Below, in pieces: positions 22,201 to 55,310 of a DNA stretch of 64,000 bases (its first letter is position 1; each line of letters starts with the position of its first letter). Source of the stretch: Candidatus Omnitrophota bacterium (GTDB taxonomy: Bacteria; Omnitrophota; Gorgyraeia; 2-01-FULL-45-10); the NCBI GenBank assembly GCA_026387175.1, contig JAPLME010000008.1, positions 13,091 to 77,090 on the forward strand, read 5' to 3'. The translations under genes were made by a program, and so were the position numbers. A model generated the notes under the pieces. It was given only the letters and a program-made list of their open reading frames with translations. It ran no database searches and had not been told where the DNA came from.

Positions 22201-23846
22201 TGTTTTATGAGAATCTTCTGAACGAAGCGAATATATGGATAGAGGTTGTGGATAAGGAAGGGAAGACCCTGCTGTGGAATAAAAAAGCTGAGGAGATCAC
22301 CGGTTTTAAAAGAGAAGAGATCATAGGTAATCTGAAAAAATGGGAGCTGGAATATCCGGATCCGAAGCAGAGGGGCAGGCTTATTAATTTTGTAAAAAAG
22401 TTAATACCCTCAGGTAAAAATATAAAAGATCTCGAGACCGAGATAGCGACGTTGGTGAACGGTACGAAGACGATGTCATGGTCTTCCACGATAATCTGCG
22501 ACAGCTATGGCAAGATAATAGGCAGCATGTTTCTCGGTAACGATGTTACGGAACGCAAGGCTATCGAGAAGGAAAGGGAATCCCTCAATAAAGAGCTTAC
22601 CAAGACTAACAAGAGATTGAGCCAGCTTGCCCTGAAAGACTTCGAGACAGGACTGCATAATCACCACTATCTGATGGAAGCGATAGAGCCGGAACTCTAT
22701 CGGGCCAAGCGTTACGTCCATCCGCTATCGGTGGTAATGATAGATATCGATTATTTCAGGTCCATCAACGACCTTTATGGCCACGAATTCGGCGACATGG
22801 TATTGAAGCAGTTTGCGACTCAGCTGAAAAAGATGGTGCGCCGCTATGACATAGTGGTGCGTTTCGGGGGAGAAGAGTTTATAATACTCTCTTCCGGCGC
22901 GGACAGGACAAGGGCCATTGCCCTCGCGCACAGGCTCATGGAAGCGTTATCCATCTACAATTTCGGCGACGACAAACATTCCGTGAAGATCAGGATGAGT
23001 ATGGCGGTGGCATCATATCCGGATGACCCGATCGAGAACGGGATGGATCTCGTGCATCTTGCCGAGAAGCTGCTGGACAAGGCGAAGGAGGCCGGCGGGA
23101 ACAAAGTATTTTCTTCGATAGACACTAAGAACGGCAAAAAACACGTACCTGTCGAAAGCGAGCCGACCGATATCCAGTATCTCAAAAAGAAGATATCGAG
23201 CCTTACGAAACGCGGAAGGCAGAGCCTGATGGAGTCTATCTTCGCTTTTGCCAAGACTATCGAGATGAGGGACCATTATACGGGCGAGCACGCTGATTCC
23301 ACCGTCCACTACGCGACCCAGATAGCGAGGGCATTGAAGCTCGAACAGGAAGAGATAGACCATGTGAGGCAGGCTGCAATATTGCATGACCTGGGCAAGG
23401 TTGGCATAAGCGACAAGATCCTGCTGAAGAGATCCAAGCTCACCAAAAAAGAATTTGATGAGATTAAAAAACATCCGCAGATCGCGGCTGATATAATAAG
23501 GCCGATACAGTTTATGAAAGATATAATACCGCTCATTCTTTATCATCATGAAAAATGGAACGGTACCGGTTACCCTATGGGTATAAAGGGCCAGTCGATC
23601 CCCGTGGGCGCAAGAATAATATCGATAGCGGACGTTTACCAGGCGTTGACTTCGGACAGGCCTTATAGAAAAGCTTTCTCGAAGAAAGAGGCGATGAAGA
23701 TATTAAAAGAGAACGTGGGGATACAATTCGATCCGAAGATAGTCAGGATATTTCTCAATATATTAAAAGGGGAAAAAGACAGGCGTCGTCCTGCGGTACC
23801 CGCAGGCAATGAACATGAGCATGAGAGGGCAAAGGGAAAGGTATGA
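19275..23846 (+). CDS. 1523-aa multi-sensor c-di-GMP signalling protein with a Cys-containing N-terminal sensor region (possibly PocR-like), several PAS and GAF domains, a GGDEF domain (GGEEF intact) and an HD-GYP domain.
   Basis: RFGGEEF lies at about nt 22860. The HD-GYP signature HDLGKVG...HHEKWNGTGYP lies at about nt 23385-23590. PAS-like repeats are followed by TERK/DITERK linkers. Confidence 0.85.
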   Translation: MADTDNKDSGPLNEYLVDGKYSIKDLVDIKGLRPIFEMLSELTGVAIGLNSYPDEEILVATAWSDICTKFHRANPESAKACLKSNLALSGKLKKAGDINIEYCDNGLVDGGTPIIVKDKHIATLFAGQVFFHKPDIEKFKEQARVFGYDTERYLEAVNKVSVITSERFKSVLSLLGRIASLIAELGYNNLEVKNRNLGLRDDVLYREKAEARIIHLNSILRAISSVSQLMIKEKDRSALLAKTCRILVDSRNYRLAWIGLIENGTFEIKPAACAGFDDGYLESIHVTWDDSPNGQGPTGITVKTRKPSIANDIATDPSFANWRGEAIRRGYRAMVSVPVVMEERIYGVINVYSDHPNAFDEQEVSLLAELAGDLGFALYTAEIESERRESEKALVVSEESYRSIFDSANDAIFIQDIETGRIIDVNQKACQMYLYSENEMLHRSIGDLSLGESPYTQEDMINVINKTSSGEPQLFEWVAKDRAERLFWVEINLKRAVINGKYQILAIVRDITDRKNTEERWEKIHETFLSFGPDPSENINKLTALCGEIMGADCAMYNRLEGETLHSCGQWNVPPGFQEMDMAQGHICYDVIKKGSDDITVISNLQESGYAETDPNVRSYNLHTYVGQAVKVGGEYIGTLCVVYQQDIEPSDEDKEIMGFIAHAISVEEERKSSEEINQMAQFAIERSGSSVFWIGPDARILHVNDMACTSLGYSREELLAMTVSDIDPSYSGDVWPRHWKEIKDRGSFLIETQHRRKDGTTFLVEVSVNYLEFQGNEYNFASARDITERKAQEEELVRRDYQLEILSRTSQHINAILEVPTILRTLIAAAIELVDATAGTAGVVVGDNVVFKEYHKDGKIYSVDYTFKPGEGLCGCITKSLRTYISNDVEHDPSVLPEFKEMLGLHNLISIPILNREGKLLGCLELYNKKDARQFDAQDVFMLQGMAAGAAVALENANMLVQRNKSQEELAWQKMFYENLLNEANIWIEVVDKEGKTLLWNKKAEEITGFKREEIIGNLKKWELEYPDPKQRGRLINFVKKLIPSGKNIKDLETEIATLVNGTKTMSWSSTIICDSYGKIIGSMFLGNDVTERKAIEKERESLNKELTKTNKRLSQLALKDFETGLHNHHYLMEAIEPELYRAKRYVHPLSVVMIDIDYFRSINDLYGHEFGDMVLKQFATQLKKMVRRYDIVVRFGGEEFIILSSGADRTRAIALAHRLMEALSIYNFGDDKHSVKIRMSMAVASYPDDPIENGMDLVHLAEKLLDKAKEAGGNKVFSSIDTKNGKKHVPVESEPTDIQYLKKKISSLTKRGRQSLMESIFAFAKTIEMRDHYTGEHADSTVHYATQIARALKLEQEEIDHVRQAAILHDLGKVGISDKILLKRSKLTKKEFDEIKKHPQIAADIIRPIQFMKDIIPLILYHHEKWNGTGYPMGIKGQSIPVGARIISIADVYQALTSDRPYRKAFSKKEAMKILKENVGIQFDPKIVRIFLNILKGEKDRRRPAVPAGNEHEHERAKGKV

Positions 23847-42740: not shown

Positions 42741-44303
42741 ATGTCTAAAAAATACTACATAACCACTCCGCTTTACTATGTAAATTCCAAACCGCACATA
42801 GGGCACTCCTACACTCAGGTAGCCTGCGATACGCTGGCGAGATTCCTGCGCCAGAGCGCGCGCGACGTATTCTTTATGACCGGCACCGATGAGCATGGCG
42901 AGAAGATCGAGAAAGCCACGATCGCCGCAGGCCTTAAAGAAGGCGAAGAACAGAAATTCGTAGATGGGATCGTCCCCGTATTTAAGGGTCTCTGGGAAAA
43001 GCTTAATATCAAATACGATTACTTTATCCGCACCACAGACGCCTATCACATAAATACGGTACAGTCTTTCCTCGATAGGCTGTACAAGGACGGGAAGATA
43101 TATAAGAAGGATTATAAGGGATGGTTTTGCACGCCCTGCGAGACTTTCTGGACCCATACCCAGAGTCCCGACGGTATCTGCCCCGACTGCAAGCGTCCGC
43201 TCGAGAAACTCGATGAGTCAAATTATTTCCTTAAGACATCGGAGCATCAGAAGTGGCTCATTGATCATATAAATAATAATCCCGGCTTTATAAAACCCGA
43301 CTTCCGGAAGAATGAAGTGCTGGGATTTCTTAAGAATGAGGAACTCATGGATCTGTGCGTCACCAGGCCGAAGGCGAGGATGAGCTGGGGCATAGAGGTG
43401 CCTTTCGACAAAGACTATGTCACATATGTATGGTTCGACGCGCTCATCAATTACGTATCCGGGATAGGCTATCCGCACGACATGGAAAGGTTTGTGCAGA
43501 TGTGGCCCGCCGATGTCCATGTAATAGGCAAAGATATACTGAGGCATCATGCTGTATACTGGACGATAATGCTGCATGCGCTCGGTCTAGAGTTGCCGAA
43601 GACGATATTCGCGCACGGGTGGTGGGTAATAAAGGGCGAGAAGATGTCGAAGTCGAAAGGTAATGTCGTAGATCCGATCGATATCGTTTCGCGGTTCGGA
43701 GTGGATCCGTACAGGTATTTTCTTTTGAGAGAAGTGCAATTCGGAATGGACGGGACATTCAGCGAAGAGGCACTCATCACCAGATATAACAGCGATCTTG
43801 CCAATGACATCGGGAATTTACTTAGCAGGACTCTCACAATGGCGGATAAATATTTTGCGGGCGTTGTCCCTGACGTATCAAATATAAAAATTAATAATTC
43901 CGCAGCCGAAGAGATAAGGACCAAAGCGATACAAGCTGCTCACGAAATGGAGAACTTGATTCCGAATTTCGATTTCGCCACCGCTCTGGCCAGGATATGG
44001 GAAGTGATAGGCTTATCTAATAAATTTATTGAGAATTCAAAGCCCTGGACACTTGCAAAAGAGAAGAAAGAGGACGAACTGGCGCTGGTGATCTACACGC
44101 TTTTGGAGGCGTTAAGAATAGTGGCCATAGAGATATATCCGTTTATGCCCGAAACCTCGGAAAAGATGCTCACGCAATTAGGGGTGAAAGAGAAAGCCGA
44201 TAATCTATTTTCTAACGCAAAAATCTGGGGCAAACTTGCCAGTGGTATAAAAGTCAGCAAGTCCGGCCCACTCTTTCCGCGTATCAATACTAAGCATGAT
44301 TAG
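42741..44303 (+). CDS. metG: Methionyl-tRNA synthetase (short form, without the C-terminal dimerisation domain)
   Basis: HIGH (PHIGHSY), KMSKS and a Zn-knuckle (CTPCETF...CPDC). Confidence 0.9.
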   Translation: MSKKYYITTPLYYVNSKPHIGHSYTQVACDTLARFLRQSARDVFFMTGTDEHGEKIEKATIAAGLKEGEEQKFVDGIVPVFKGLWEKLNIKYDYFIRTTDAYHINTVQSFLDRLYKDGKIYKKDYKGWFCTPCETFWTHTQSPDGICPDCKRPLEKLDESNYFLKTSEHQKWLIDHINNNPGFIKPDFRKNEVLGFLKNEELMDLCVTRPKARMSWGIEVPFDKDYVTYVWFDALINYVSGIGYPHDMERFVQMWPADVHVIGKDILRHHAVYWTIMLHALGLELPKTIFAHGWWVIKGEKMSKSKGNVVDPIDIVSRFGVDPYRYFLLREVQFGMDGTFSEEALITRYNSDLANDIGNLLSRTLTMADKYFAGVVPDVSNIKINNSAAEEIRTKAIQAAHEMENLIPNFDFATALARIWEVIGLSNKFIENSKPWTLAKEKKEDELALVIYTLLEALRIVAIEIYPFMPETSEKMLTQLGVKEKADNLFSNAKIWGKLASGIKVSKSGPLFPRINTKHD

Positions 44304-44315
44304 TAGGAAAAAATA

Positions 44316-44368
44316 GGGACTGTCCCCAGACCGTAATCTAAGCGAGGTGGGGACTGTCCCATTTTTTC
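44316..44368 (+). terminator. Rho-independent terminator after metG. The stem is formed by GGGACTGTCCCC and GGGGACTGTCCC (one central mismatch) around a 21-nt loop, followed by a T-run (ATTTTTT).
   Basis: Read directly from the sequence at 13 nt after the metG stop. Confidence 0.55.
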
Positions 44369-44389
44369 CAAGCAATCTTCTTCTAGCTA

Positions 44390-44417
44390 TTGACATTCTG
44401 GTATTATATGATATACT
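44390..44417 (+). promoter_or_regulatory. Sigma70-like promoter TTGACA-N16-TATACT in the AT-rich leader of the giant ORF.
   Basis: Hexamers were read from the sequence. About 130 nt of AT-rich leader lie before the first in-frame ATG. Confidence 0.45.
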
Positions 44418-44547
44418 TAAGTTAGGATAAAGGTTGTTATAAGTGTGTGTTTTTATGCAGTATCCCGCCTTAAATAAATAAATCAAAACGATTAACCAAA
44501 GGGGTTAGTGTAGCTATAATAACGTTTAACATGCTCAGGGTTTATTC

Positions 44548-47500
44548 ATGTTAAGCGCTAAAAAAGATAGCTATGCTTCTATTGACTTAACCACTCCATA
44601 TGCTATACTGAATACTATGTATATCTTCAAAATGCAGTATAGTATTCTATTTAGAGCTATAGCGCTATTTGTCGCATGTTTATTCCTGGCCAATGATATA
44701 AGTTGGGCTGTTCCTTCCAGTTATTCAAATTATTTAGAAACTACTACCACTCTTGCCGTAGAATCCAGGCTCAAACCTTTCTTCGAAAAACACGGTTTAG
44801 ATTTCCAGAATATGTTTAGCGTATATTGTGTAACTGCTGAACTGCGAAACCTGATCATGAAGAGAGAAGTAAGAGATAGCGATATTGTAAGGCTGAACAG
44901 GAATTTACCCCAAGATGAAATCCAGATAGAAAGAGAAACCGTAAAATCCAAATTCATTAAAGCCGCTTCCTTTGAGTCTACCGGAAAAGATTACAAATAC
45001 GCTATCCTCAATTTTAAAAAATCCGGAAAGCGGATTAAAATGGCATTTGTCGACAGTAAACTCGAAAGCAGTGAGCGATTAGAGCTCGGGATCAAAACCG
45101 AAAATGATATAGATCATTTTTCTAGTCCAGGCCTTGAGGGAGTCTGGTTTATTAATATTAAGCCTTCATCGAACTTCGGTTCTGGAAATGCAGCGCAGAC
45201 CATTTATGAAATGCTATCTTCTTACGGTGATAAAGAAGACATTCTGTCTGATCATGGCAAGAGGGTGCTTGCCTGTATACGAGACGGCTCTGTTTCATCT
45301 GATATTCTAGGTTTTGATATCAATAAGCTTCGCGGCTCAACGTTGCCGCAGGCCATCGAGCAGTTGGTCTTGCCGGTGGAACATGGTGGCTTAAATAACG
45401 GCAAAAACTCTTTCTTCATATCGCCCGAAGAATATCTTGAAAAGAACCCACAATGGGCGTCTTCAAGATTTTCAATCTTCCCCAAATCGATTCGATTGGT
45501 AAAAGGTTGTAATAATGATTGCCTCTTTTGCCTGGCTGAGGGACGTAGATCTGTTCAGTCTCTACCTTACCCGATTGCCGCACAGCGCATTCTACGAACA
45601 CATTTTAAAAGGGATGGTATGAGAGGTCGAGCAAGAGCTGTAGCCTATTACCACGGAGATGAGGATATTTTTCACTATATCGATAAAATATGCGGCGCCA
45701 ATATAGCTGACCTGATCTCCTTTGAGCAAAAATTCCCGAGTCCAGTCCGATTTTATACCGAAATGTACACGGCGGGATATTCTCCGTTCGACCCTTCGAT
45801 GGCGTATGTTAAAGATGCGATCGGACAATTACGGGGACAGAAGATCAATGAAAGAACGTACAGAATCTTTATCACATATCATCTATTCAGGCCTGAAATC
45901 GAAGAAGCGATTCTGCAAAAGGACAAAGGTAAGTTAATAAGGGCCGTGAGGGCGTATATGCGGATGTATAAAGAACTTTTTCTTTGCCAGCCCGGCCTGG
46001 AAGTATTGAATAGATCGGCTCTCGAAGAAGATGCGAACTCTTCAAGGGTCATAAAGACGATCGCCGCGATACAGGCTCAGGTGCTGAAGCATCTGAAGAA
46101 TGAAGATGAGACTAAAGAAGCATCTCCGGTATTCTATGATAGATGTATTAATTGGACGCGAGGCCATAAAGCGAAATCCGAGTTTGAGCGCCTGCGTAAA
46201 GCCGAATCCGAAGATCCTGAACTGACCGCCTTTTTAGATAGTTTGGTTATCGAAGAAATTGTGGCAGGATGGGGCGCCCCGCCGAACGCCGGCCCTGAAA
46301 GCCCAGCACAGAAAGGTATGTCCACACACGACACGCCCTCTATAGATACTGGTAAGCTTATTGAGGCAAACGAAGCGTTATCAAGAGTTGAAAATTACCT
46401 CAGATCCGATAAAATTGTTATTTTTGGGGATATGCATCGCGGAGAACTAAAGCCACAGGATGATGAAGTTTGGGATCGCGAACTTTTTCTCGATTATGTT
46501 GAACAGATGGGAAAGCTCTCGATGAATTTTTCGGTTGCGCTGGAGTTACCTTATCAACTCGAAGATAAACTTAACGATCCTTCCGTTTCAGTAGAAGAAT
46601 TTCTGGATGAATACTATAAACTTATAGCTAATGAATATTCTGATGAAATTACCAGAATAAATAGCGAAATACGAGGACCTTACTTATATCGGTTGTTAAC
46701 TGCTCTGAAACACTTCAAGATACCCGTTATTCTTATTGGTGACATTAATGGCCAGCTCAATGGCGGGTTTACAACCATAGATAGAATAGAACAATCCAAT
46801 GAAGATATGACGCGGAAACTTTTGGAAGGACGAAAGAAATATTCGAATGATTCTGTCTTAGTGATGGTAGGGAGAAACCATGTGGTGCCAAAGGTTAATC
46901 CTATCTGGCTCGGTGGGCGTGAGATAAATTCCATACCAGAAATGTTACGAGAGTCTGCAACCAATGTTAAATTAATCCGACCCGATGATATTCAACATGA
47001 CGAAGAGGATTTGGCGAAATTTGACCTGGTCATAAAAGTCGATGGGGAGCGCCAAAATGAATACCTGGCAAGGCAGAAAGACATGTCTATGCGTGATGCA
47101 TCTCCTATAGATAGAAACGGGCTCAGCTCTTTACTTTTTACGCGAAACCGAGATGGCGAGATATTTTTGAATATACCGGTTTTTGAAAAGATCGTTAATA
47201 GCGTTCATTCCAGCCGGGTTTTGGGTAGCGCGCGGTATTTATCTGATCTTGAGGGGTTTGTCCCGTTATCAAAATGTAAGAACGACATAGATATAATGCT
47301 ATTTAATCAGATTGGCGCAAAAGATAAGAGCGCGATAATAGCCAAACTTGTTACGGAACTTGAAAAATATGGAATTGTGAAGATAGGACAAAATGGGGAA
47401 TCCGTCACCGTAAGATTTCCCGGTTCCGAAGAGAACGCGGTCCTTCACATAACGGATCAATGGAATCTTAATACCATCATATACGATATTGTAAGATACC

Positions 47501-50500
47501 AAGGCAACTGTTTATCGATGCTGCAGAAAATAAGGGAAGGTGATATAGGGCCTTCCCTGTCGGATAAAACCGTAAAGATATACCTTTCGGTAAGCTACTA
47601 TTTTGGCGATCCTGAGCTTTACAGAAGTAGGCTACGGGAGTTTTTGGACTGCAAAAACGAACATGAATTTGAAAAACTAAAAGACATTATATTCCGTCAG
47701 GATTTGGATACCCTTGCCGAAAGAATGCACAGTCTTTTGGACGAAGAGAAGCTGGGGGTGGTAAGAGAACGGATTAATATGAAAGAGCCTTTAGAGTCTT
47801 CAAGAATGGGTACAAATTCAGCTTTGGATCTGACCGCGCTTGTTAATAAGTTGGTCGAGGAAATAAGCTCAAAGCAAGCACCCGAGTGGATGGCTCAAGC
47901 TTATCGGCCCGGGCGAGTACTTGTCAGCGCAGAGCGCGAAGGGAATGACACAATTGACGCCAAAATTAAACAGGCCAAACAGCATATTATGCTGGCCACA
48001 CAAGACCCTATTTTGCAAGCCAGGGCCGAACAAGCATTAGAGTTATTACGCCGACATCCACGAGTGCCTGAGCTCATGATTTTAGAGTTTGAAGGAGTTG
48101 CTCACCGTTTGATCAAACTTATTACAGGAAACGAACAGGCTTATCAGGAATACAAGAGAAAGCTGGATGAGGCGATCCAGCCTCTATATCTACAAATCCG
48201 TGATCAGATTCTCAAAATTCCAGATCGAAAGGAAGCGCTTCGTACTGCAGTAATTTACGCCGGTATTGTAAATCTTCTGGATATTACACATGCGGCTTCT
48301 ATACAGGAGATAGCTGATGGCCTAGGGGTAAAAATCGATTTTAGTAAAGGATTGCCTTCGCCTACAGATATTCAATATGTGCTCAATAAAGTATATGAAT
48401 ATGTTGTCAATGAAAAGGCTATTATTATCGATGAACTGGAAGATTTTCTGGCCCGTCTGGAAAAAAATCCGCCGGGAGGAACGATCCTTTACTTTACCGA
48501 TAATCATGGAGAGTTCACTTTCGATCAATTAGTTATCGAACAACTTCTCTTAGCCGGCTATAAGGTTGCCGTAGTTAGCCGCGGCGAGACCGTACGTGAT
48601 GACGTAACGCGGGATGAGGCTACCACGCTTTTGAAAGCTAACCCTAATTTTAGAGCTTTTTTTGCCGACGGCCGCCTAACTGTAACAACAGACGGTTCCT
48701 ACTTTCTCGGGGCAGATTTAAATCAGTCCACCCAGCACCCTGATTTTCTTGCCGCCTGGCGTCAATCCGTTGGATATATTTCCAAAGGTGCCGGGAACTT
48801 CCACACATTATTTGGTCAGCGCCTTTCTTTGCCTGGCCTTTATATTCGCATGATGAAAAAGTCACAAAATTCGTATCAACTTCTTGAAGAGGCACGCGGC
48901 CTGACATTTTCTAAAAAAACGCCGTATGATTTAGCATTAGTTTATCAGCCCGAGGTCTCTTCAAATGGAGTGTCCCCGCGCCCTGGATGGGCTCCGCTTG
49001 CTGGAACCGACGAGTCGACTATCTCTCGTTACGGTTTTCAAGGGAAGCTCATTGCGACGGATCTTGACGGGCTCTTTGAAAAAATCGGTGACATGGTTGC
49101 GGAAAAAGATGGCAGGCTCTTAGCCGTGGACGGGCTGGCTTCTGCGGGGAAAACGACACTGGTAAAAGGCAATAACGCGCTTCAGGTTAAAGGGCTTAAA
49201 ACATATCTGGAAAACCGGTTTGGCCGGCCGGTCATATGTCTTGAAAGAGATTGGTTCTTGAAAAGTCGAGAAGAACGAAAAGCTGTTTGTGCCCACCTGC
49301 ATCCCGATGAAATTTTTACAGAAGAAGCAGAAACACATTTTGATAATGAAGCCTATGTGCAAAAACTTACCGAAGTCCTTGAGTTTTTAAATACAAAAGG
49401 GCCTCCGGGAGAAACATATCAACTGAAAGGAAAGGCTTATAATTGGATTTCCGAAAAAGTAGATGCCGATCTTTCCGATATGGGTTATGTTCCGCCCATT
49501 CCCCGCAACGCCATAGTGATTGTTGAAGGACAACATACTCTTGCAAAAACAAATCCAGGCTTTTTTGACGTGAAAGTATTTGTCGATGTTGCGGATACTG
49601 GTAAGACTCTCGAGAGGGCTGTCCAAAAAGAAATGGGAAGGGATGAAGTTCGCCGGCGAAGCGCGGATGACATCAGAAAAAGAATGAGGCAAGTAGACAT
49701 CCCATCTTCTCGGGCGCTTCAGGAGCGCGGAAATTACATGGAGCATATGGACTTTGTTGTTATGAACGATGACCTTAGCCGACCGTTGATTTATCAATCC
49801 ATGGGAGGAGACGCTCTGCTGAAGGCAAATGAGGGCGATGTATCCTTGCCAATTTCTGGGAAAATTTCGCCTGCCGGGTCGATATATAGCGTATTCGAAT
49901 ATCTTTGCGAACATAATATAACGGATAAGTACCATGCTATCAGTGGCAACATACTGGCAAAAGCCGTAGGAGAGGAACATGTGGTAAGGCAGAAAGCCCT
50001 ATCTCCCAAAAGCATAGAAAGGGACCTGAGAGCATTATTGCGCCTGCGTCTTATTAAAAAAGGACCCAGGATCGGCACTGCTAAAGACGCGCCATATTAT
50101 GTTCCGGAAGCTGTTAAGAAGAAGGCCTATAGAATACTTCCTGTCCTTGAGCAATTCAGAGGCCGCGATCTCCGGCCTACAATACCCCGCCTTGATGATG
50201 TTTATAAAAATCAAATATTACCAATTCTTACAGAGTCCGATATCGGCAGCGCTACGCTGGCGTTCCGGTTAATGAATGCGTTGACATATGCAGATGTAAA
50301 AGAAGATTTTAATGTCATGGTTACTTATAAATGCCCTTTTAATTGCTCCCATTGTCTGGCGAAAGACGCACTAAGGGTTGGCAAGGGAAAGGATGCTGAA
50401 AAAGGCCAGTTGTTCGCGTTATTCGATCAGCTTAAAGGATTTAAGAGGATACACATCGTTGGTCCGGGTGAACCTCTGGCATATGGTAAAGATAAACTGC

Positions 50501-52836
50501 TAAAGCCCGGCATCAGTAAAGATTTTCTCGAGGTCATTCGATATGCCGCGGAACGTATAGAGGAAATTCGCATTGTCACTAACGGTTATCTTTTTCCGGA
50601 AGATATAGATGAAGCAAGGCGATTTTTCGCGCAATTCCCAAAAAATATATTATGGCAACTTTCCGTTGATAAATTTCATGAAGAGCAGTTTGCGCGTATG
50701 CCGGGCAGGGACAAAGATTCCCTTCAAAGAGTGGTAAAGGTTATGGAGCAATTAGCCGAGGAAGGTTTAATAAAGACCGCATATATAGCGCGGATCGAGC
50801 CGGGCGAATCCAGCAGGAATCTTATAGGGTATTTCGATTTGGAGAGTAAATATTATTCCGACTACAAGAGTATTTTTATAAACAAGGTTGTAGCTCAAGG
50901 CAGCGCCATTGCGAATATAGCTACTGCGAAGCCGCTTGATAATGAGGACGTTAGAAATCACGGCTTTGTTCCCAGTAAGCTCTTTCCTTTTATTGACACC
51001 GAGGGCAATTTCGTTACATCAGATCATGTGGCGTATATGACGGGAAATCAGAGAAAAGAGCTATCAAAGAAAATTCCTAAGAGAGCTATGGTAGTAGGCA
51101 ATATCAATTCTTCTCCATTAGGGAAGATCATCGCGGATAGACTCATATTTGGTAATTACAAAGACTGGATTTACATAGAAGAACTTGACCGGGTTACCTT
51201 TAAAGATGTGGTAAGAGCCCTGATACTCTATCAAAATGGGGATAAGAAGACGGCCATGTCAACCATGTTAAGTTTATTCAGGAAAAGCATAGAAAGCCCA
51301 AAGGAAATATTAAAAATCACCCACCATCTCACGGATCGCTTAAAAGACATCTCACTAATAAATTTTATCGAAGATTGTGAAAATAACGGGATTACTATTA
51401 TTGAAAGACAGGGAAAGAATAAAATTGATTTAGCTATGGCTGTGGGGATATTTCAGAAAAGGACAGACGTTTACCGTGACTTTGCAGAAGCGTTCGCTGA
51501 AGAGTATGAGGCTGAAGAAAGTAAGATACCTCTTCTTTATTTTTATGGTCCCTGTCCGATTTATGGTGTCTCATCAGGGTACTTTCAATTTCGAAATGAT
51601 AATGAGAGATTCTTCTCCGGAAGAGATCGCGGTTTTTATATTTCTATGCGCACAGGTTCGCCCGATGTTATTGAGGAACGTTTTATTAAAGATATGGAAC
51701 TTGCCGCGGATGGTATTGTGCACCATCCTGTTGGAGCGCTATATGATAAAAGAGATAGAAACTATCATTATGTAGTGGTGGAAGAAAATGGCGTAGACGT
51801 AGATGATGCGACTGAAATCAATGAGTTTGTCAGTGAGGCAGTTTTAGTGAACTACCACAAAGATAGTAAAATAGGCTGGAATATTAAAAAAATAGGCGAA
51901 TTTGCGGCAAAGCTCGATAAACACAATGTTAGTATAACAGCTAATGACTGCCGCAGATACAATACTATGCTATTACAGCGTAACAATGGCGATATTATGC
52001 TCTGGGGCCATTACACAGTTAAACGTGATCCTTGGGCGCCTAGCGCAAAAGACATGTTTAATGAACTGTTTCATGAAACACTTGAACGCGCATTTTCTCC
52101 GAAAGATAATAGATTAAAGTATTTAATGAAAATAGTGGACACCAATTTTATAAAAGGATATAACTCCGAATTTAATAAAGGTGGCATAGTGCGCTCGAAG
52201 GATATTATGCCACAGCCGCTCTTGGTATCAGTCCAAGAAGAAGCGTCCAAAATACATGCTGAAAATCTTGAGCATACCCCAGCTATACCGGATAAGACAA
52301 TAATATGCCACATCATCGCGGGTTCGATACTCCCTGCAGGGCAAAGAAATGTGCTAAAGACGCTTGAACAGAATATGAGAGATGAGAAATACAGCGAGAA
52401 AGTGGTGTCGCTATCAGTCGAAGATTCGGGCAGCCCGGAAGAGTTTATGAAGGAATTGGAAATCATAAAGGCCCGCGAGGAAGCCAAATATCCAGGTTAT
52501 AAAGTCCAATTCGACGTCGCCTGTCCTGATAAAGATCTTGTGAGTGCGATACAGGACAAAGGAATGCGCGCGCTCGCTTTCGCTAAAGAAGGAGACGGTG
52601 ATATAGTCCAGGTTGAAGGCATTATCTTGGCCTTGCGGGCTCTCCAGACAGGAAGCATAGATAATCTTATTAAGGTTTACAAGCTTCTCACAGGCAAAGA
52701 ATTCTCGCCAGGTACGAATGATATCAATGAATTAGCAAGGATGATGCTATTTATCCTGCCTGTTCGAAAAGTAGATCTTAACGCCCTCAGTGCACTGAAC
52801 AAAATTATAGAAGAGAATATCAAAACCGCGGCATAA
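44548..52836 (+). CDS. Giant 2762-aa multi-domain protein. Order of elements: signal anchor; radical-SAM core 1 (CNNDCLFC, residues about 321-328); a ChaN/Tiki-like region; a DUF89/ARMT1-like phosphatase-like region (DNHGE and KGAGNFHTL motifs); a PRK/uridine-kinase-type P-loop kinase (GLASAGKTT and VEG...VFVDVADTGKTLERAVQKEMGRD); radical-SAM core 2 (CPFNCSHC, GPGEPL, TNG, residues about 1929-2015); and a C-terminal region of about 600 aa of unknown function.
   Basis: Single uninterrupted ORF of 8.3 kb in a visibly AT-richer island. The motifs were read from the translation. The true start is uncertain (44548, or internal Mets at about 44620 or 44632) because there is no clear SD. Confidence 0.75.
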   Translation: MLSAKKDSYASIDLTTPYAILNTMYIFKMQYSILFRAIALFVACLFLANDISWAVPSSYSNYLETTTTLAVESRLKPFFEKHGLDFQNMFSVYCVTAELRNLIMKREVRDSDIVRLNRNLPQDEIQIERETVKSKFIKAASFESTGKDYKYAILNFKKSGKRIKMAFVDSKLESSERLELGIKTENDIDHFSSPGLEGVWFINIKPSSNFGSGNAAQTIYEMLSSYGDKEDILSDHGKRVLACIRDGSVSSDILGFDINKLRGSTLPQAIEQLVLPVEHGGLNNGKNSFFISPEEYLEKNPQWASSRFSIFPKSIRLVKGCNNDCLFCLAEGRRSVQSLPYPIAAQRILRTHFKRDGMRGRARAVAYYHGDEDIFHYIDKICGANIADLISFEQKFPSPVRFYTEMYTAGYSPFDPSMAYVKDAIGQLRGQKINERTYRIFITYHLFRPEIEEAILQKDKGKLIRAVRAYMRMYKELFLCQPGLEVLNRSALEEDANSSRVIKTIAAIQAQVLKHLKNEDETKEASPVFYDRCINWTRGHKAKSEFERLRKAESEDPELTAFLDSLVIEEIVAGWGAPPNAGPESPAQKGMSTHDTPSIDTGKLIEANEALSRVENYLRSDKIVIFGDMHRGELKPQDDEVWDRELFLDYVEQMGKLSMNFSVALELPYQLEDKLNDPSVSVEEFLDEYYKLIANEYSDEITRINSEIRGPYLYRLLTALKHFKIPVILIGDINGQLNGGFTTIDRIEQSNEDMTRKLLEGRKKYSNDSVLVMVGRNHVVPKVNPIWLGGREINSIPEMLRESATNVKLIRPDDIQHDEEDLAKFDLVIKVDGERQNEYLARQKDMSMRDASPIDRNGLSSLLFTRNRDGEIFLNIPVFEKIVNSVHSSRVLGSARYLSDLEGFVPLSKCKNDIDIMLFNQIGAKDKSAIIAKLVTELEKYGIVKIGQNGESVTVRFPGSEENAVLHITDQWNLNTIIYDIVRYQGNCLSMLQKIREGDIGPSLSDKTVKIYLSVSYYFGDPELYRSRLREFLDCKNEHEFEKLKDIIFRQDLDTLAERMHSLLDEEKLGVVRERINMKEPLESSRMGTNSALDLTALVNKLVEEISSKQAPEWMAQAYRPGRVLVSAEREGNDTIDAKIKQAKQHIMLATQDPILQARAEQALELLRRHPRVPELMILEFEGVAHRLIKLITGNEQAYQEYKRKLDEAIQPLYLQIRDQILKIPDRKEALRTAVIYAGIVNLLDITHAASIQEIADGLGVKIDFSKGLPSPTDIQYVLNKVYEYVVNEKAIIIDELEDFLARLEKNPPGGTILYFTDNHGEFTFDQLVIEQLLLAGYKVAVVSRGETVRDDVTRDEATTLLKANPNFRAFFADGRLTVTTDGSYFLGADLNQSTQHPDFLAAWRQSVGYISKGAGNFHTLFGQRLSLPGLYIRMMKKSQNSYQLLEEARGLTFSKKTPYDLALVYQPEVSSNGVSPRPGWAPLAGTDESTISRYGFQGKLIATDLDGLFEKIGDMVAEKDGRLLAVDGLASAGKTTLVKGNNALQVKGLKTYLENRFGRPVICLERDWFLKSREERKAVCAHLHPDEIFTEEAETHFDNEAYVQKLTEVLEFLNTKGPPGETYQLKGKAYNWISEKVDADLSDMGYVPPIPRNAIVIVEGQHTLAKTNPGFFDVKVFVDVADTGKTLERAVQKEMGRDEVRRRSADDIRKRMRQVDIPSSRALQERGNYMEHMDFVVMNDDLSRPLIYQSMGGDALLKANEGDVSLPISGKISPAGSIYSVFEYLCEHNITDKYHAISGNILAKAVGEEHVVRQKALSPKSIERDLRALLRLRLIKKGPRIGTAKDAPYYVPEAVKKKAYRILPVLEQFRGRDLRPTIPRLDDVYKNQILPILTESDIGSATLAFRLMNALTYADVKEDFNVMVTYKCPFNCSHCLAKDALRVGKGKDAEKGQLFALFDQLKGFKRIHIVGPGEPLAYGKDKLLKPGISKDFLEVIRYAAERIEEIRIVTNGYLFPEDIDEARRFFAQFPKNILWQLSVDKFHEEQFARMPGRDKDSLQRVVKVMEQLAEEGLIKTAYIARIEPGESSRNLIGYFDLESKYYSDYKSIFINKVVAQGSAIANIATAKPLDNEDVRNHGFVPSKLFPFIDTEGNFVTSDHVAYMTGNQRKELSKKIPKRAMVVGNINSSPLGKIIADRLIFGNYKDWIYIEELDRVTFKDVVRALILYQNGDKKTAMSTMLSLFRKSIESPKEILKITHHLTDRLKDISLINFIEDCENNGITIIERQGKNKIDLAMAVGIFQKRTDVYRDFAEAFAEEYEAEESKIPLLYFYGPCPIYGVSSGYFQFRNDNERFFSGRDRGFYISMRTGSPDVIEERFIKDMELAADGIVHHPVGALYDKRDRNYHYVVVEENGVDVDDATEINEFVSEAVLVNYHKDSKIGWNIKKIGEFAAKLDKHNVSITANDCRRYNTMLLQRNNGDIMLWGHYTVKRDPWAPSAKDMFNELFHETLERAFSPKDNRLKYLMKIVDTNFIKGYNSEFNKGGIVRSKDIMPQPLLVSVQEEASKIHAENLEHTPAIPDKTIICHIIAGSILPAGQRNVLKTLEQNMRDEKYSEKVVSLSVEDSGSPEEFMKELEIIKAREEAKYPGYKVQFDVACPDKDLVSAIQDKGMRALAFAKEGDGDIVQVEGIILALRALQTGSIDNLIKVYKLLTGKEFSPGTNDINELARMMLFILPVRKVDLNALSALNKIIEENIKTAA

Positions 52837-52887
52837 AGAGTCCCCTTATTGCTTTTCGTATAGAGTTAGCATATAATTGTATCTATT

Positions 52888-54258
52888 ATGCTGATAGATA
52901 CACATTGCCATCTCGACTTCAAGGATTTCGATCCTGACCGGGATGATGTCATAAATAGAGCATTGAAAGCCGGCGTGATGAAGATAATCAATGTCGCCAG
53001 CTCCATCGAAGGGTCACACCGCTCCGTCGAGCTTGCCAATAAATACGATATGGTCTACGCGACTGTCGGTGTTCATCCGCACGACGCGAAATCTGTTACC
53101 GATAGCGCTATCTCCGAACTCAAAGCGCTTGCCAAAGATAAGAAGGTGGTGGCGATAGGCGAAGTCGGATTGGATTATTATCGCAACCTTTCCCCCAAAG
53201 AAGACCAGGCCTCCGCTTTTAAGAAATTCGTATATCTTGCGCTCGATCTCGATCTGCCGCTTATTATCCACGCGCGGGAAGCCGATCGCGATGCGCTGGA
53301 TATGCTGAAAAGCGAGAAAAGAGATGCCTTGCGCGGCGTCATACACTGTTTTTCTGGCAATGCCGATTTTATGAAAGAATGCCTCGACATAGGATTCTTC
53401 ATATCCTTCACCGCCAATATAACTTTTAAGAAAGCCGACGATTTAAGAATGGTGGCGAGGGATATTCCGCCGGAGAGGCTCTTGCTGGAGACAGACGCGC
53501 CGTTCCTCGCGCCGCAGGCGATGCGCGGCAAGCGCAACGAGCCGGCGTATCTCACTCATCTCGTAGGTGAATGGTCGCGACTCCTCGACCTCTCCAAGGA
53601 TGATGTTGCCAGGATCACTACACATAACGCAAATTCACTGTTTAAGCTCAAACTGGACGAATCATCGAAGATCGCTTATGAGATCAGGGATTCGCTTTAC
53701 TTCAATATAACCAATAGGTGCACCAACTCCTGCGATTTCTGCGTGAGAAATCAGACCTCTTTTGTCAAAGGCCATAATCTTAGGTTGGATGAAGAACCGT
53801 CCGCTGAAGAGATAATAAAAACTATAAACCCCGCGAAGAAATATAAAGAGATAGTATTCTGCGGCTATGGTGAGCCGACCATGCGCCTGGACGTGATAAA
53901 AGAGGTTGCTGGCGCCCTGAAGGCCCGCGGGGGCGTTAAGATCAGGGTTGTGACTAACGGACACGGAGATCTGATAAATTCCAGAAATATCGCCAAAGAG
54001 CTTGCGGGGCTTGTGGATAAAGTTTCGGTGAGCTTGAACACCGATACGGCTGAAGCATATAACAAATACTGTAAGCCTGAATTCGGCCCGGACGCCTATG
54101 GCGCCGTGATCAATTTCATAAAAGACTGCGTAAAAAATAAGATCGAAGTCGAAGTGACGTGCCTGGACCTGCCGGGGGTCGACTTAAAGAGATGTGAAAC
54201 GATAGCGAAAGAGCTGGGTGGTATATTCCGTCCCAGATCGCTCGGGGTGGTCGGATGA
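52888..54258 (+). CDS. TatD-family metal-dependent hydrolase fused to a C-terminal radical SAM domain (TatD-associated rSAM family)
   Basis: N-terminal TatD motifs (IDTHCHLD, GEVGLDY, LPLIIHAR, LETDAPFL). The C-terminus carries CTNSCDFC (Cx3Cx2C), a CGYGEPT motif and VVTNGHG. Confidence 0.8.
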   Translation: MLIDTHCHLDFKDFDPDRDDVINRALKAGVMKIINVASSIEGSHRSVELANKYDMVYATVGVHPHDAKSVTDSAISELKALAKDKKVVAIGEVGLDYYRNLSPKEDQASAFKKFVYLALDLDLPLIIHAREADRDALDMLKSEKRDALRGVIHCFSGNADFMKECLDIGFFISFTANITFKKADDLRMVARDIPPERLLLETDAPFLAPQAMRGKRNEPAYLTHLVGEWSRLLDLSKDDVARITTHNANSLFKLKLDESSKIAYEIRDSLYFNITNRCTNSCDFCVRNQTSFVKGHNLRLDEEPSAEEIIKTINPAKKYKEIVFCGYGEPTMRLDVIKEVAGALKARGGVKIRVVTNGHGDLINSRNIAKELAGLVDKVSVSLNTDTAEAYNKYCKPEFGPDAYGAVINFIKDCVKNKIEVEVTCLDLPGVDLKRCETIAKELGGIFRPRSLGVVG

Positions 54259-55310
54259 GCAGGCTTTCCGGTTTTCTTAAAAGAGAGCGGCTCTACATAC
54301 TTCTTCTCGTATTTGTAACGATAGTGACTGCGTTGATATTGTTTACGCCGTCTGATAAAGTCAAACCTTCAGTCAATGTCGCAGATAAGCCCGCATCCGT
54401 AATGCCGGGAGAGAAGGCTTCAAGTGACCGCGAAGCCGTAGAAAAGGCATTGGCCAAAAATAAATATCTCTCTTTCACCCTCACTCTAATATCGCTTCTT
54501 GTGATTGCGCTATTTTTGCTGGGGGTCATAATAGACACGCTTCTTATATTATCCCGGTCAGAGAGAAATAAGGCTGATATAAGCACTTATAAAGCGCAGA
54601 AAGCAAAGTGGGGAATATGGGACGTTTTCAAAGTCGTCATTCTCTATCTTTTCTTCGTATATATACTACTGATCTCCGAAACTTCTCTTGTACGCGTCTT
54701 TAAGATGCTGAAGGATGATAACTTCAGGATGATCTTGAACACATCAATAATGGACATCCTTGGCATTGCTTTCATATTAAATTTTGTTGTCGTGCAGTAC
54801 AAAACGGGTCTTATATCGCTGGGATTATCGGTAAAGAACTTTTTTAGAAATGTATATTACGGGATCGTCGCCTATATAGCGCTGATACCCGTCCTTATAG
54901 GCATAATATCGGTGATAGCCATCGTGATAAGCCTGACAAAATACTCTCCGCAAAAACAGGCTGTAGTGGAGCTGTTCTTCAAGGAGAAGGACGTGTCGTT
55001 TTTATTATATACGAGCCTCTTCGCGGCTGTGGCCGGCCCGATAGTCGAGGAGATATTCTTCAGGGGGTTTCTTTACAGCGCTATAAAAAAATATATCGGG
55101 ATATTCTGGGCGACGCTTATTTCTGCAGCGTGTTTCGCGCTTCTCCATGCGCACCTGGTCGGGTTCCTGCCTATACTGGCGCTCGGCATTCTTCTCGCAT
55201 ATTTGTATGAGAAGACGGGGACTCTTGTGTCGTCGGTCACTGTACATATGATACATAATATTGGAATGGTGCTTTTAGTCTTTCTTGTAAAGCAGCTGGG
55301 AGTCTATTGA
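54255..55310 (+). CDS. CPBP-family intramembrane metalloprotease (CAAX protease / Abi domain)
   Basis: Multi-TM protein with the EExxxR motif (VEEIFFRGFLY) and conserved FxxxH/H motifs (FALLHAHL, HMIHN). Confidence 0.7.
   Translation: MSRLSGFLKRERLYILLLVFVTIVTALILFTPSDKVKPSVNVADKPASVMPGEKASSDREAVEKALAKNKYLSFTLTLISLLVIALFLLGVIIDTLLILSRSERNKADISTYKAQKAKWGIWDVFKVVILYLFFVYILLISETSLVRVFKMLKDDNFRMILNTSIMDILGIAFILNFVVVQYKTGLISLGLSVKNFFRNVYYGIVAYIALIPVLIGIISVIAIVISLTKYSPQKQAVVELFFKEKDVSFLLYTSLFAAVAGPIVEEIFFRGFLYSAIKKYIGIFWATLISAACFALLHAHLVGFLPILALGILLAYLYEKTGTLVSSVTVHMIHNIGMVLLVFLVKQLGVY

Follow-up and report, generated by a model that had tools for sequence, protein, structure and literature searches.

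A probable functional pair of TatD nuclease and radical SAM domains in Omnitrophota, and the lineage-specific giant gene beside it

In the stretch of Candidatus Omnitrophota DNA analysed here (64,000 nucleotides, the window), a gene encoding a TatD hydrolase fused to a radical SAM (rSAM) domain lies directly downstream of a giant gene whose product also contains rSAM cores. The question that this locus raises is whether both genes constitute one functional unit with a shared, duplicated radical SAM chemistry, as a sequence-only reading had proposed, or whether the fusion gene belongs to another context. We favour, with a probability of roughly 0.6, that the fusion protein is an Omnitrophota housekeeping TatD of the YcfH/YabD type, encoded in its ancestral slot and fused to a single-cluster rSAM domain of the TIGR04038 family, that this TatD-rSAM pair is the functional unit, and that the giant gene is unrelated to it. 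The coordinates of all features are collected in Table 1.

The fusion gene, its two halves and its neighbourhood

The product of the fusion gene carries two Pfam domains, TatD_DNase and, at residues 273-441, Radical_SAM (E 3e-18). Together with the NCBIfam matches and the one intact ORF, this bears out the earlier description of a complete TatD hydrolase joined to a compact rSAM domain, and the two parts are not separate ORFs split by a sequencing error. An identical protein is called on 7 contigs, the 6 contigs listed coming from 6 different sequencing runs, and the TatD plus Radical_SAM architecture is common to 120 of the 120 protein clusters among the matches listed (64-100% identity). For these two reasons the fusion is not a sequencing artefact. 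An AF2 model of the full-length protein (pLDDT 86, pTM 0.75) has an ordered linker. The same protein is also present in NCBI under the name 'YchF/TatD family DNA exonuclease'.

Table 1. Features of the metG to CPBP region, in positions of the window
Feature	Coordinates	Strand	Remarks
metG, ancestral upstream neighbour of tatD-rSAM	42741..44303	+	NF008900, 700 bits
Giant ORF	44548..52836	+	2762 aa; lineage-specific insert between metG and tatD-rSAM
tatD-proximal promoter-like element	52846..52887	+	TTGCTT, 17-nt spacer, TATAAT (-10 at 52872-52877)
tatD-rSAM fusion gene	52888..54258	+	456 aa; single unbroken ORF
TatD metal-dependent nuclease domain, YcfH/YabD-type, 'HxH' Group II	52894..53646	+	aa 3-253; PF01026, E 6e-88
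HCH (HxH) active-site motif, TatD half	52903..52911	+	motif position; invariant in alignment of relatives
TIGR04038 'TatD-associated' radical SAM domain	53668..54243	+	aa 261-452; minimal core of ~190 aa
CTNSCDFC (Cx3Cx2C motif)	53719..53742	+	C278/C282/C285 kept in 96-98% of 81 family members
CGYGEPT (GGE-type motif)	53860..53880	+	G326 and G328 at least 95% conserved; E329 and P330 80-95%
CPBP/Rce1-like intramembrane protease gene	54255..55310	+	PF02517; overlaps the tatD-rSAM stop by 4 nt

In NCBIfam the TatD half matches TIGR00010 (YchF/TatD) with 294 bits, the cutoff being 206, and by sequence it comes closest, in the PDB, to 1j6o, 2gzx and YcfH (6l25/1yix). The motifs listed from the sequence were all located, HCH at residue 6, GEVGLD at 91, HAR at 128 and ETDAP at 201. 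The ligand set of TIGR00010-type enzymes consists of HxH, the E of GEVGLD, the H of HAR, the H of HCF and the D of ETDAP, and the predicted metal ligands H6, H8, E92, H128, H153 and D203 are present here and invariant in 46 relatives. Given the HxH motif, which defines Group II (PMC10085689), we place the TatD half in this group together with YcfH. The E. coli YcfH protein is a Mg2+-dependent 3'-5' exonuclease with AP endonuclease activity (PMC10085689), and the activities demonstrated for the TIGR00010/YcfH-type family are nucleolytic (PMC10085689, PMC4176340). Assignment to QatD, the TatD nuclease of the Qat anti-phage system, was rejected (102.2 bits against a cutoff of 230).

The rSAM half matches TIGR04038 (tatD_link_rSAM) with 251.4 bits against a cutoff of 129.7 and covers model positions 1-191 of 192. 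The 'TatD-associated radical SAM' family of TIGRFAMs to which the sequence-only reading pointed exists (TIGR04038 / IPR023821), and the fusion is already catalogued as a member of this curated family, which has no assigned function. A literature search on TatD with radical SAM and on TIGR04038, IPR023821 and TIGR04100 retrieved, in the library searched, one text that names the family in passing and no study of its function. Membership of TIGR04100 (rSAM_pair_X) was rejected at 196.1 bits, below the cutoff of 262, and the domain scores far below every equivalog cutoff in NCBIfam. The four motifs noted for this half were found at residues 278 (CTNSCDFC), 325 (CGYGEPT), 354 (VVTNGHG) and 379 (VSVSLN). 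We take the Cx3Cx2C cysteines to be the ligands of a single [4Fe-4S] cluster, and the GGE-type motif is presumably SAM-binding. Among the 81 family members C325 is kept in 94% and the remaining Cys positions in less than 60%, so no auxiliary cluster is indicated. The AF2 model of the domain (pLDDT 90, pTM 0.87) retrieved generic rSAM cores only from the PDB with Foldseek (BlsE, NifB, TYW1, viperin and MoaA, at most 22% identity) and no specific structural neighbour, and a profile search of the PDB with the family placed MoaA best (32 bits, E 9e-7). The pI of the domain, taken as a proxy for nucleic-acid binding, has a family median of 7.0 and is uninformative.

Gene order in the window is cysS-tmk-holB-ricT-metG-[giant insert]-tatD-rSAM. 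In 23 loci, drawn from Omnitrophota, Clostridia and Endomicrobia, the rSAM gene has a metG homologue on its own strand no more than 6 kb upstream. The fusion gene directly follows metG, in the order tmk-holB-ricT-metG-tatD and with no giant gene, in five loci (L007, L013 and L091-L093), and the same order, with TatD-rSAM after metG and again no giant gene, is also found in 18 Clostridia/Endomicrobia loci. The Omnitrophota relatives with this arrangement have TatD-rSAM proteins of 62-79% identity. In Clostridia the order is metG-tatD-rSAM-ksgA, and in E. coli tmk-holB-ycfH. In a census of neighbouring genes, metG and TatD alone recurred across phyla and no third conserved partner emerged; whatever else lies nearby (ksgA, S13 peptidase, PrmA and CPBP, for instance) is housekeeping and specific to a lineage. 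The 4-nt overlap with the CPBP gene recurs in L090, L091 and L093, and this gene was found beside the family in Omnitrophota loci only and not in the other phyla sampled.

Upstream of the fusion gene, the -10 box of the promoter-like element lies 10 nt ahead of the ATG, and a Shine-Dalgarno sequence is absent. The element aligns and is kept in the window, L090, L091 and L093 regardless of the upstream content; a consensus scan did not report it because its -35 box matches in only 3 of 6 positions. An Rfam scan at gathering threshold of the window and three relatives gave no match, and the folding of the conserved post-metG element as RNA was not better than that of shuffled sequences (z = -0.39).

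Partners of the radical SAM domain and the reaction it may perform

In Omnitrophota, Nitrospirota, Ignavibacteriota and Kryptoniota a single protein carries both TatD and rSAM. In Clostridia and Endomicrobia the two are adjacent, typically overlapping genes; in 23 loci of these groups a separate tatD precedes the rSAM gene, with a median spacing of -11 nt. Since the two are fused in some phyla and encoded by separate overlapping genes in others, we consider them a real functional pair. The fetched loci contain 81 family members, of which 47 are fused and 29 stand-alone. The family is represented in Omnitrophota, Thermodesulfovibrio, Melioribacter/Ignavibacteria, Clostridia, Endomicrobia, Methanosarcinaceae and Smithella/Syntrophaceae, a set of lineages that we count in favour of a restriction to anaerobes. 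The pairing is not strict in either direction. Many archaeal and Syntrophaceae rSAM members of ~205 aa stand alone (no TatD is found within 10 kb in L081 and L083), and in Methanomethylovorans-like archaea a GGACT/AIG2-like domain takes the place of TatD, either fused to the rSAM or encoded beside it. Conversely, in the Omnitrophota loci L056 and L057 the same slot contains a TatD of 255 aa and no rSAM. The rSAM is therefore not strictly dependent on TatD, nor TatD on the rSAM.

As to what the pair does, it may process a nucleotide or nucleic-acid substrate in anaerobes by coupling radical chemistry with hydrolysis, though we hold this only tentatively. The rSAM domain would reductively cleave SAM at its single [4Fe-4S] cluster, and the resulting 5'-deoxyadenosyl radical would take a hydrogen from the substrate. 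Purely conjectural candidates for this substrate are 3' ends that carry damage or a block, and modified nucleotides. The adjoining two-metal TatD site would then hydrolyse the phosphoester, and the pair would thereby process or repair nucleic acids or nucleotides in two steps, in anaerobes only. Lacking any substrate-binding extension at its C-terminus, the rSAM core probably depends on the partner domain to bind the substrate. In a more specific and unlikely version, the enzyme would perform radical-based nucleic-acid end-processing or repair in anaerobes, the minimal rSAM domain using the 5'-deoxyadenosyl radical to turn a lesion or blocked terminus into something that the fused YcfH-type exonuclease/AP endonuclease can excise. 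If true, TatD-rSAM would be the housekeeping counterpart, in anoxic lineages, of the repair of oxidative damage by TatD.

The stand-alone members and the GGACT partners argue that the role is more general or that the substrate is a small molecule. It could be that the TIGR04038 domain acts on a metabolite other than a nucleic acid (a damaged cofactor, say, or a compound that is phosphorylated or bears a gamma-glutamyl group) and that its partner, a TatD-fold hydrolase in bacteria or GGACT in some archaea, performs the follow-up cleavage. Besides the many members that stand alone, this would suit the GGACT-rSAM fusions (9 clusters) and adjacent GGACT genes of Methanosarcinaceae, which lie beside a gene for a GGR-like flavoprotein, and the nearest solved relatives (MoaA, viperin, BlsE and NifB), which act on small molecules or nucleotides. 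However, the TatD half is a full-scoring member of the TIGR00010/YcfH type, whose nucleolytic activities are cited above, and it occupies the conserved holB/metG-linked slot, as does E. coli ycfH, so that we regard a metabolite substrate as rather unlikely.

A role directed at proteins appears quite improbable. The minimal rSAM domain would then be an activase or maturase like PflA or NrdG, putting a radical or a modification on its partner (TatD, or GGACT in archaea) instead of working on the substrate of that partner. Glycyl-radical activases are similarly compact; the domain has ~190 aa, a single cluster and no substrate-binding extension, pairs with different partner proteins, and finds PflA weakly in the profile search (3c8f, E 0.008). 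But PflA and NrdG are not among the best 50 structural matches, stand-alone members have no consistent partner, and TatD relatives work with no rSAM partner, as in L056/L057 and in E. coli YcfH (PMC10085689).

The giant gene and the junction between metG and tatD

The sequence-only reading joined positions 44548-54258 into one functional unit, in which the TatD-linked rSAM would be a paralogue of the second rSAM core of the giant protein (core 2). The motifs reported for core 2 do exist, CPFNCSHC at residue 1929, VGPGEPL at 1971, IVTNGYL at 2009 and LSVDK at 2038, but the 'same motif series and spacing' goes no further than a chance or generic resemblance: the spacings are 47/29/25 residues in the TatD-linked rSAM and 42/38/29 in core 2, and the motifs Cx3Cx2C, the GGE-type element, TNG and SxS/SxD belong to the core of MoaA/viperin/NifB-like radical SAM enzymes in general. 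The pairwise BLASTP alignment of core 2 with the TatD-linked rSAM reaches 26.6 bits, with 22.5% identity over 111 aa, and two unrelated control rSAMs from other genomes outscore it (30.4 and 29.6 bits). An HMM of the TatD-linked family, built from 81 members, gives at least 186 bits for these members and 11.2 bits for the giant protein. The NCBIfam models nearest to core 2 are those of mycofactocin, MoaA, W-maturase and viperin; TIGR04038 and TIGR04100 are absent among the matches listed (25 of 28 NCBIfam families).

A phmmer search with core 2 against 1.84 billion representatives gave 95 matches, the best being internal modules of long, multi-domain proteins of 1,052-7,503 aa, and the 95 include neither a TIGR04038-like protein nor the neighbouring TatD-rSAM. 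The relatives have 35-67% identity to core 2 over ~240 aa, and none exceeds 32 bits with the TatD-linked family HMM. Only hhalign of the family profile against core 2 (probability 93%, E 3e-7, 20% identity) is slightly better than with three control rSAMs (89%, 51% and 32%). A specific paralogy with core 2 is thus not borne out by BLASTP, family HMM, NCBIfam or phmmer; judged on these comparisons, the two domains are homologous at the superfamily level only, and the rSAM cores of the giant protein belong to rSAM families other than TIGR04038. Long Omnitrophota proteins with rSAM domains have been described (bioRxiv 10.64898/2026.06.07.730766).

Gene content likewise contradicts a single unit, the giant gene being missing from the relatives' loci or present in a version that lacks the cores. 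The closest relative, L090, has a giant-family member in the same slot and a TatD-rSAM of 90% identity, and yet its upstream protein is a 781-aa version in which both rSAM cores are missing. Elsewhere, giant-family members adjoin transposase or toxin-antitoxin genes, with no TatD-rSAM there, and the inserts in L010 and L011 have no relationship to the giant family. In the window the giant gene has a GC content of 41-45%, against 46-50% in its flanks. Homologue N-termini align with the giant protein from residue ~24, and its true start is probably M24, at 44617. The two genes are on the same strand, and since the 51-nt gap between the giant stop and tatD contains no terminator-like site, tatD-rSAM may be co-transcribed with the giant gene by read-through in this strain. 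In spite of this adjacency, of the occupied slot in L090 and of the hhalign score, one unit with shared, duplicated chemistry is extremely improbable in view of the core 2 comparisons, of metG-tatD-rSAM loci without a giant gene in the relatives and in three other phyla, and of the other surroundings of its family. The drop in GC and the conserved promoter-like element that tatD-rSAM has to itself also speak for the independence of the two genes. Lower in GC and specific to its lineage, the giant gene is unrelated to the TatD-rSAM pair and has been inserted into a variable slot that separates metG from tatD. As a weaker corollary, the metG/tatD junction of Omnitrophota may be a hotspot of recombination at which large cargo genes are captured again and again beside a conserved promoter and palindrome element.

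The practical value of this result is that of negative evidence: the giant gene is to be analysed alone, with neither a TatD-rSAM partner nor a duplicated chemistry assumed. Knowledge of the fusion itself is little changed, as it is a typical member of a curated family. Why a minimal radical SAM enzyme is joined to the conserved YcfH/YabD nuclease in so many strict anaerobes is the wider question.

Relation to known systems

The TatD half resembles YcfH/YabD (TIGR00010; 1yix, 6l25, 1j6o and 2gzx) in its HxH Group II site, in all metal ligands, over the whole domain length and in its genomic place after holB/metG; the difference is the C-terminal radical SAM domain of ~200 aa, absent in YcfH and YabD. 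With QatD it has the TatD fold in common, whereas the gene context here is housekeeping and not a defence island. The rSAM half shares the partial-barrel core of MoaA/viperin/NifB-type enzymes, which are its best fold matches (TM 0.6-0.72) and its best profile matches, but unlike MoaA and NifB it has no C-terminal extension and no auxiliary cluster. The core 2 module family of the giant protein falls in the same broad branch of radical SAM cores as this half but is a different family. In relation to TIGR04038 / IPR023821, an NCBIfam subfamily_domain named for its association with TatD, there is no difference at the family level, the protein described here being its fused form in Omnitrophota.

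A TatD nuclease and a radical SAM domain in one protein

The gene tatD-rSAM encodes a TatD hydrolase and a radical SAM (rSAM) domain in a single uninterrupted translation (see table), and the ORF listing shows no rival long ORF over it on either strand. The product matches TIGR00010 ('YchF/TatD family DNA exonuclease') with 294 bits (NCBIfam cutoff 206), and its aa 261-452 cover positions 1-191 of 192 of TIGR04038 ('TatD family nuclease-associated radical SAM protein') with 251 bits (cutoff 129.7). Membership of TIGR04100 (196 bits, cutoff 262) and of QatD (102 bits, cutoff 230) was rejected. The sequence-only reading had described this fusion, quoted motifs that we located as stated, and rightly named a 'TatD-associated radical SAM' family. 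An identical protein is found on 7 contigs, the 6 shown coming from 6 different sequencing runs, and the same architecture is present in 120/120 protein clusters listed (64-100% identity; nearly all Omnitrophota, where the source is named). On these grounds an assembly artefact is rejected as the origin of the fusion, and a split of the two parts by sequencing error is discarded. NCBI already lists the exact protein under the name 'YchF/TatD family DNA exonuclease [Candidatus Omnitrophica bacterium]'. The observed fusion is real, and belongs to a known, curated family.

Features of the tatD-rSAM locus and of relatives; percentages are identity to the TatD-rSAM of the window
Feature	Position	Strand	Description
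tatD-rSAM ORF	52888-54258	+	ATG 52888, stop ends 54258; 456 aa (ORF listing)
TatD_DNase domain	aa 3-253 of TatD-rSAM		Pfam, E 6e-88
Radical_SAM domain	aa 273-441 of TatD-rSAM		Pfam, E 3e-18
Giant ORF	44548-52836	+	2762 aa
Region upstream of tatD	44304-52887		Usually the metG-tatD junction
Element 3' of metG	44390-44553		Conserved, non-coding
TTGACT-16-TATACT	44582-44609		Ends 7 nt ahead of ATG 44617
tatD-rSAM stop/CPBP start	54255-54258		4-nt overlap
Long ORF	9601-14028		1475 aa
Long ORF	19275-23846		1523 aa
TatD without rSAM, L056	10001-10768		255 aa, same syntenic slot
TatD without rSAM, L057	5070-5831		255 aa, same syntenic slot
rSAM with GGACT/AIG2-like domain, L085	7194-8198		Fused or directly adjacent
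rSAM with GGACT/AIG2-like domain, L083	9591-10600		Fused or directly adjacent
metG to tatD-rSAM, L007 (69%)			Nothing, 76-nt gap
metG to tatD-rSAM, L013 (62%)			Nothing, overlapping genes
metG to tatD-rSAM, L091/L092 (79%)			Gene-free 432-nt gap
metG to tatD-rSAM, L093 (76%)			Gene-free 665-nt gap
metG to tatD-rSAM, L011			1648-aa and 208-aa ORFs (both without Pfam match), AbiEii toxin gene
metG to stand-alone TatD, L056/L057			Class-V aminotransferase
metG to tatD-rSAM, L090 (90%)			781-aa giant relative, then 1565-aa SGL_GH162 ORF

The rSAM half and the giant protein

The rSAM half is a minimal core of ~190 aa. Among 81 family members from related loci, C278/C282/C285 are kept in 96-98% and C325 in 94%; since every other Cys is conserved in <60%, only one [4Fe-4S] cluster would be expected. 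Further residues conserved family-wide are Y264, Y271, N273, T275, L298, P304, Y319-K320-E321, F324, G326, G328, R353, G358, D377, S382, F410 and R450. AF2 gave pLDDT 86 and pTM 0.75 for the full-length protein, with the linker ordered in the model, and pLDDT 90 and pTM 0.87 for the rSAM domain alone. Foldseek of the domain model against the PDB returned generic rSAM cores only (BlsE, NifB, TYW1, SkfB, viperin, MoaA, anSME; TM 0.6-0.72, <=22% identity), and the top PDB sequence match to the family profile, MoaA, reaches just 32 bits, so the domain has no close characterised homologue. A literature search found no functional work on the TIGR04038 family.

This half had been proposed as a paralogue of the second rSAM core (core 2) of the giant protein encoded upstream. 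When aa 255-456 were compared with the giant protein by BLASTP, core 2 did align (22.5% identity, 111 aa, 26.6 bits), but two unrelated rSAMs in the loci collected scored higher (30.4 bits in L069, 29.6 in L027). A family HMM built from the 81 members gives each of them at least 186 bits and the whole giant protein 11.2, below incidental rSAMs (21.5 and 18.3). For giant residues 1900-2140 the top NCBIfam models are mycofactocin maturase, MoaA, tungsten-cofactor maturase and viperin (E 3e-8 to 1e-6), TIGR04038 and TIGR04100 being absent among the best 25 of 28 families. The reciprocal phmmer test is decisive against the paralogy: core 2 has 95 matches among 1.84 billion representative proteins at E <= 1e-3 (23 with E <= 1e-30), and the neighbouring TatD-rSAM is absent from them. 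The best are internal modules in long proteins (1,052-7,503 aa; 35-67% identity, ~240 aa), and all 94 non-self matches score <=31.8 bits against the HMM of the TatD-linked family. In hhalign the family profile reached a probability of 93% with core 2 (20% identity) and of 89%, 51% and 32% with three control rSAMs; judged by these alignments, the homology is real at superfamily level only. As for the 'same motif series and spacing', the series is present in both, but it is the generic rSAM core pattern and the spacings are 47/29/25 residues in the rSAM half versus 42/38/29 in core 2. Core 1 of the giant protein (around C321) is related to a different long protein, P0005 (37% identity, 295 aa).

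Gene order and the metG-tatD junction

Scanning GTDB representative genomes provided 80 loci with relatives, whose order was mapped by tblastn and by look-ups of closer relatives. The real unit is TatD with the TIGR04038 rSAM, a fusion/fission (Rosetta-stone) pair. The two are fused in Omnitrophota, Nitrospirota, Ignavibacteriota and Kryptoniota, and separate in Clostridia (order metG-tatD-rSAM-ksgA) and Endomicrobia, with tatD upstream (median spacing -11 nt); the neighbour comparison found no third gene recurring beside them across phyla. The coupling is not obligatory. Stand-alone rSAM members of ~205 aa are many in Methanosarcinaceae and Syntrophaceae, and a few archaeal members are fused to or adjoin a GGACT/AIG2-like domain, a different partner for the family, with a GGR-like flavoprotein next to it.

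In L085 and L083, from Methanomethylovorans and Methanohalophilus, the rSAM is fused to, or directly follows, this gamma-glutamyl cyclotransferase domain, with a geranylgeranyl-reductase-like flavoprotein upstream; L083 has no TatD within 10 kb. In two Omnitrophota genomes TatD occurs alone in the same slot (L056/L057), and therefore the rSAM add-on was gained or lost within this phylum.

The proposal that 44548-54258 forms one functional unit is refuted together with the paralogy. metG is followed by tatD-rSAM without the giant gene in L007, L013 and L091-L093, and directly by tatD + rSAM in 18 Clostridia and Endomicrobia loci; the giant gene was seen only on contigs with the identical TatD-rSAM protein (L001-L005). 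The 781-aa relative in L090 is made up of three modules of the giant, the N-terminal one (aa 21-252, 60% identity), ARMT1 (aa 1081-1484, 79%) and the C-terminal one (aa 2506-2762, 63%), and both rSAM cores are missing despite a 90%-identical TatD-rSAM. Other homologues have the terminal modules alone in common and lie elsewhere, away from any TatD-rSAM, beside Y1 transposase, Gp49/HTH toxin-antitoxin or M78+HTH genes. GC is 41-45% in the giant gene and 46-50% in its flanks. Two Omnitrophota loci carry other genes upstream of tatD-rSAM, without metG being seen: in L008 a glycosyltransferase/rSAM cluster (no metG within 10 kb), in L010 an 876-aa HAD fusion protein, on a contig that ends ~3 kb upstream.

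The region upstream of tatD is variable across Omnitrophota. The giant protein belongs to a small 'bookended' mosaic family (with homologues P0002-P0007 and L087-L090), in which an N-terminal module (about aa 20-250, with a ESRLKPFFEKHGLDFQN motif besides a TM or signal-like segment) and a C-terminal one (about aa 2556-2762, ending NIK(S/T)AA) enclose an enzyme cargo entirely different in each member, among others methyltransferases and kinase; HAD, epimerase and rSAM; ARMT1; PRTase and HATPase. The L090 protein is a mini-version with the ARMT1 module as its only cargo. Two more long ORFs of the window (see table) show no match to the terminal modules at E <= 1e-3; the first corresponds to a further region of low GC (0.40 at 10001-12000).

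A promoter-like element just upstream of tatD (TTGCTT, 17-nt spacer, TATAAT, 10 nt before the ATG) is kept in the window, L090, L091 and L093, regardless of the upstream genes. Since a terminator-like site is absent after the stop of the giant gene, read-through into tatD-rSAM may occur in the window strain. Homologues of the giant protein align from residue ~24 and TTGACT-16-TATACT lies shortly before ATG 44617, which suggests translation from M24, the mRNA being leaderless or nearly so. The tatD-rSAM start is similarly arranged: it lacks a Shine-Dalgarno sequence, and 10 nt separate the -10 box from the ATG.

The conserved element 3' of metG carries a strong predicted promoter (TTGACA-16-TATACT), a second TATAAT and then a perfect palindrome, TTAACATG-N13-CATGTTAA, within which the first ATG of the giant ORF (44548) lies. 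It is kept in L090, L091 and L093, including relatives without the giant gene, has no Rfam match, and its fold does not beat those of shuffled sequences. A role as repressor operator or as small RNA is possible.

Downstream of tatD-rSAM follow genes for a CPBP protease, a DUF362/ferredoxin protein, a hypothetical protein, mtnA and thiL. The overlap with the CPBP/Rce1-like intramembrane protease gene is kept in L090, L091 and L093, and the block continuing with the DUF362+2x[4Fe-4S] protein gene and mtnA was seen in Omnitrophota loci only.

Possible activity and known counterparts

Catalytic motifs are intact in both halves, the rSAM core has no substrate-binding extension, its gene is tightly linked to a YcfH-type nuclease, and TIGR04038 relatives are distributed in anaerobic lineages. 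A tentative mechanism, to which we give a probability of roughly 0.3, is that SAM cleavage would yield a 5'-deoxyadenosyl radical that acts on a nucleic acid or a nucleotide; hydrolysis of the phosphoester at the adjoining TatD site would follow. Two main rivals have to be weighed against it: the rSAM may act on a non-nucleotide small molecule, as its GGACT partners and stand-alone members suggest, or it may be a protein-directed maturase, a role consistent with the minimal size of the domain. More unusual than this pair are its neighbours, namely the modular bookended giant-protein family, the variable metG-tatD slot and the promoter and palindrome element 3' of metG.

The HxH motif of the TatD half is H6-C7-H8, which, by sequence, assigns it to 'Group II' with E. 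coli YcfH, YjjV and human TATDN3; of these, YcfH acts as a 3'-exonuclease and AP endonuclease (PMC10085689). Its best solved sequence relatives are Thermotoga 1j6o, S. aureus 2gzx and YcfH 6l25/1yix, with E. coli TatD and YjjV ranking behind; H6, H8, E92, H128, H153 and D203 are invariant among 46 relatives. In the window, cysS, tmk, holB, ricT (yaaT) and metG lie upstream of tatD-rSAM. TatD occupies an ancient housekeeping slot, because the order in E. coli is tmk-holB-ycfH and that in B. subtilis metS-yabD.
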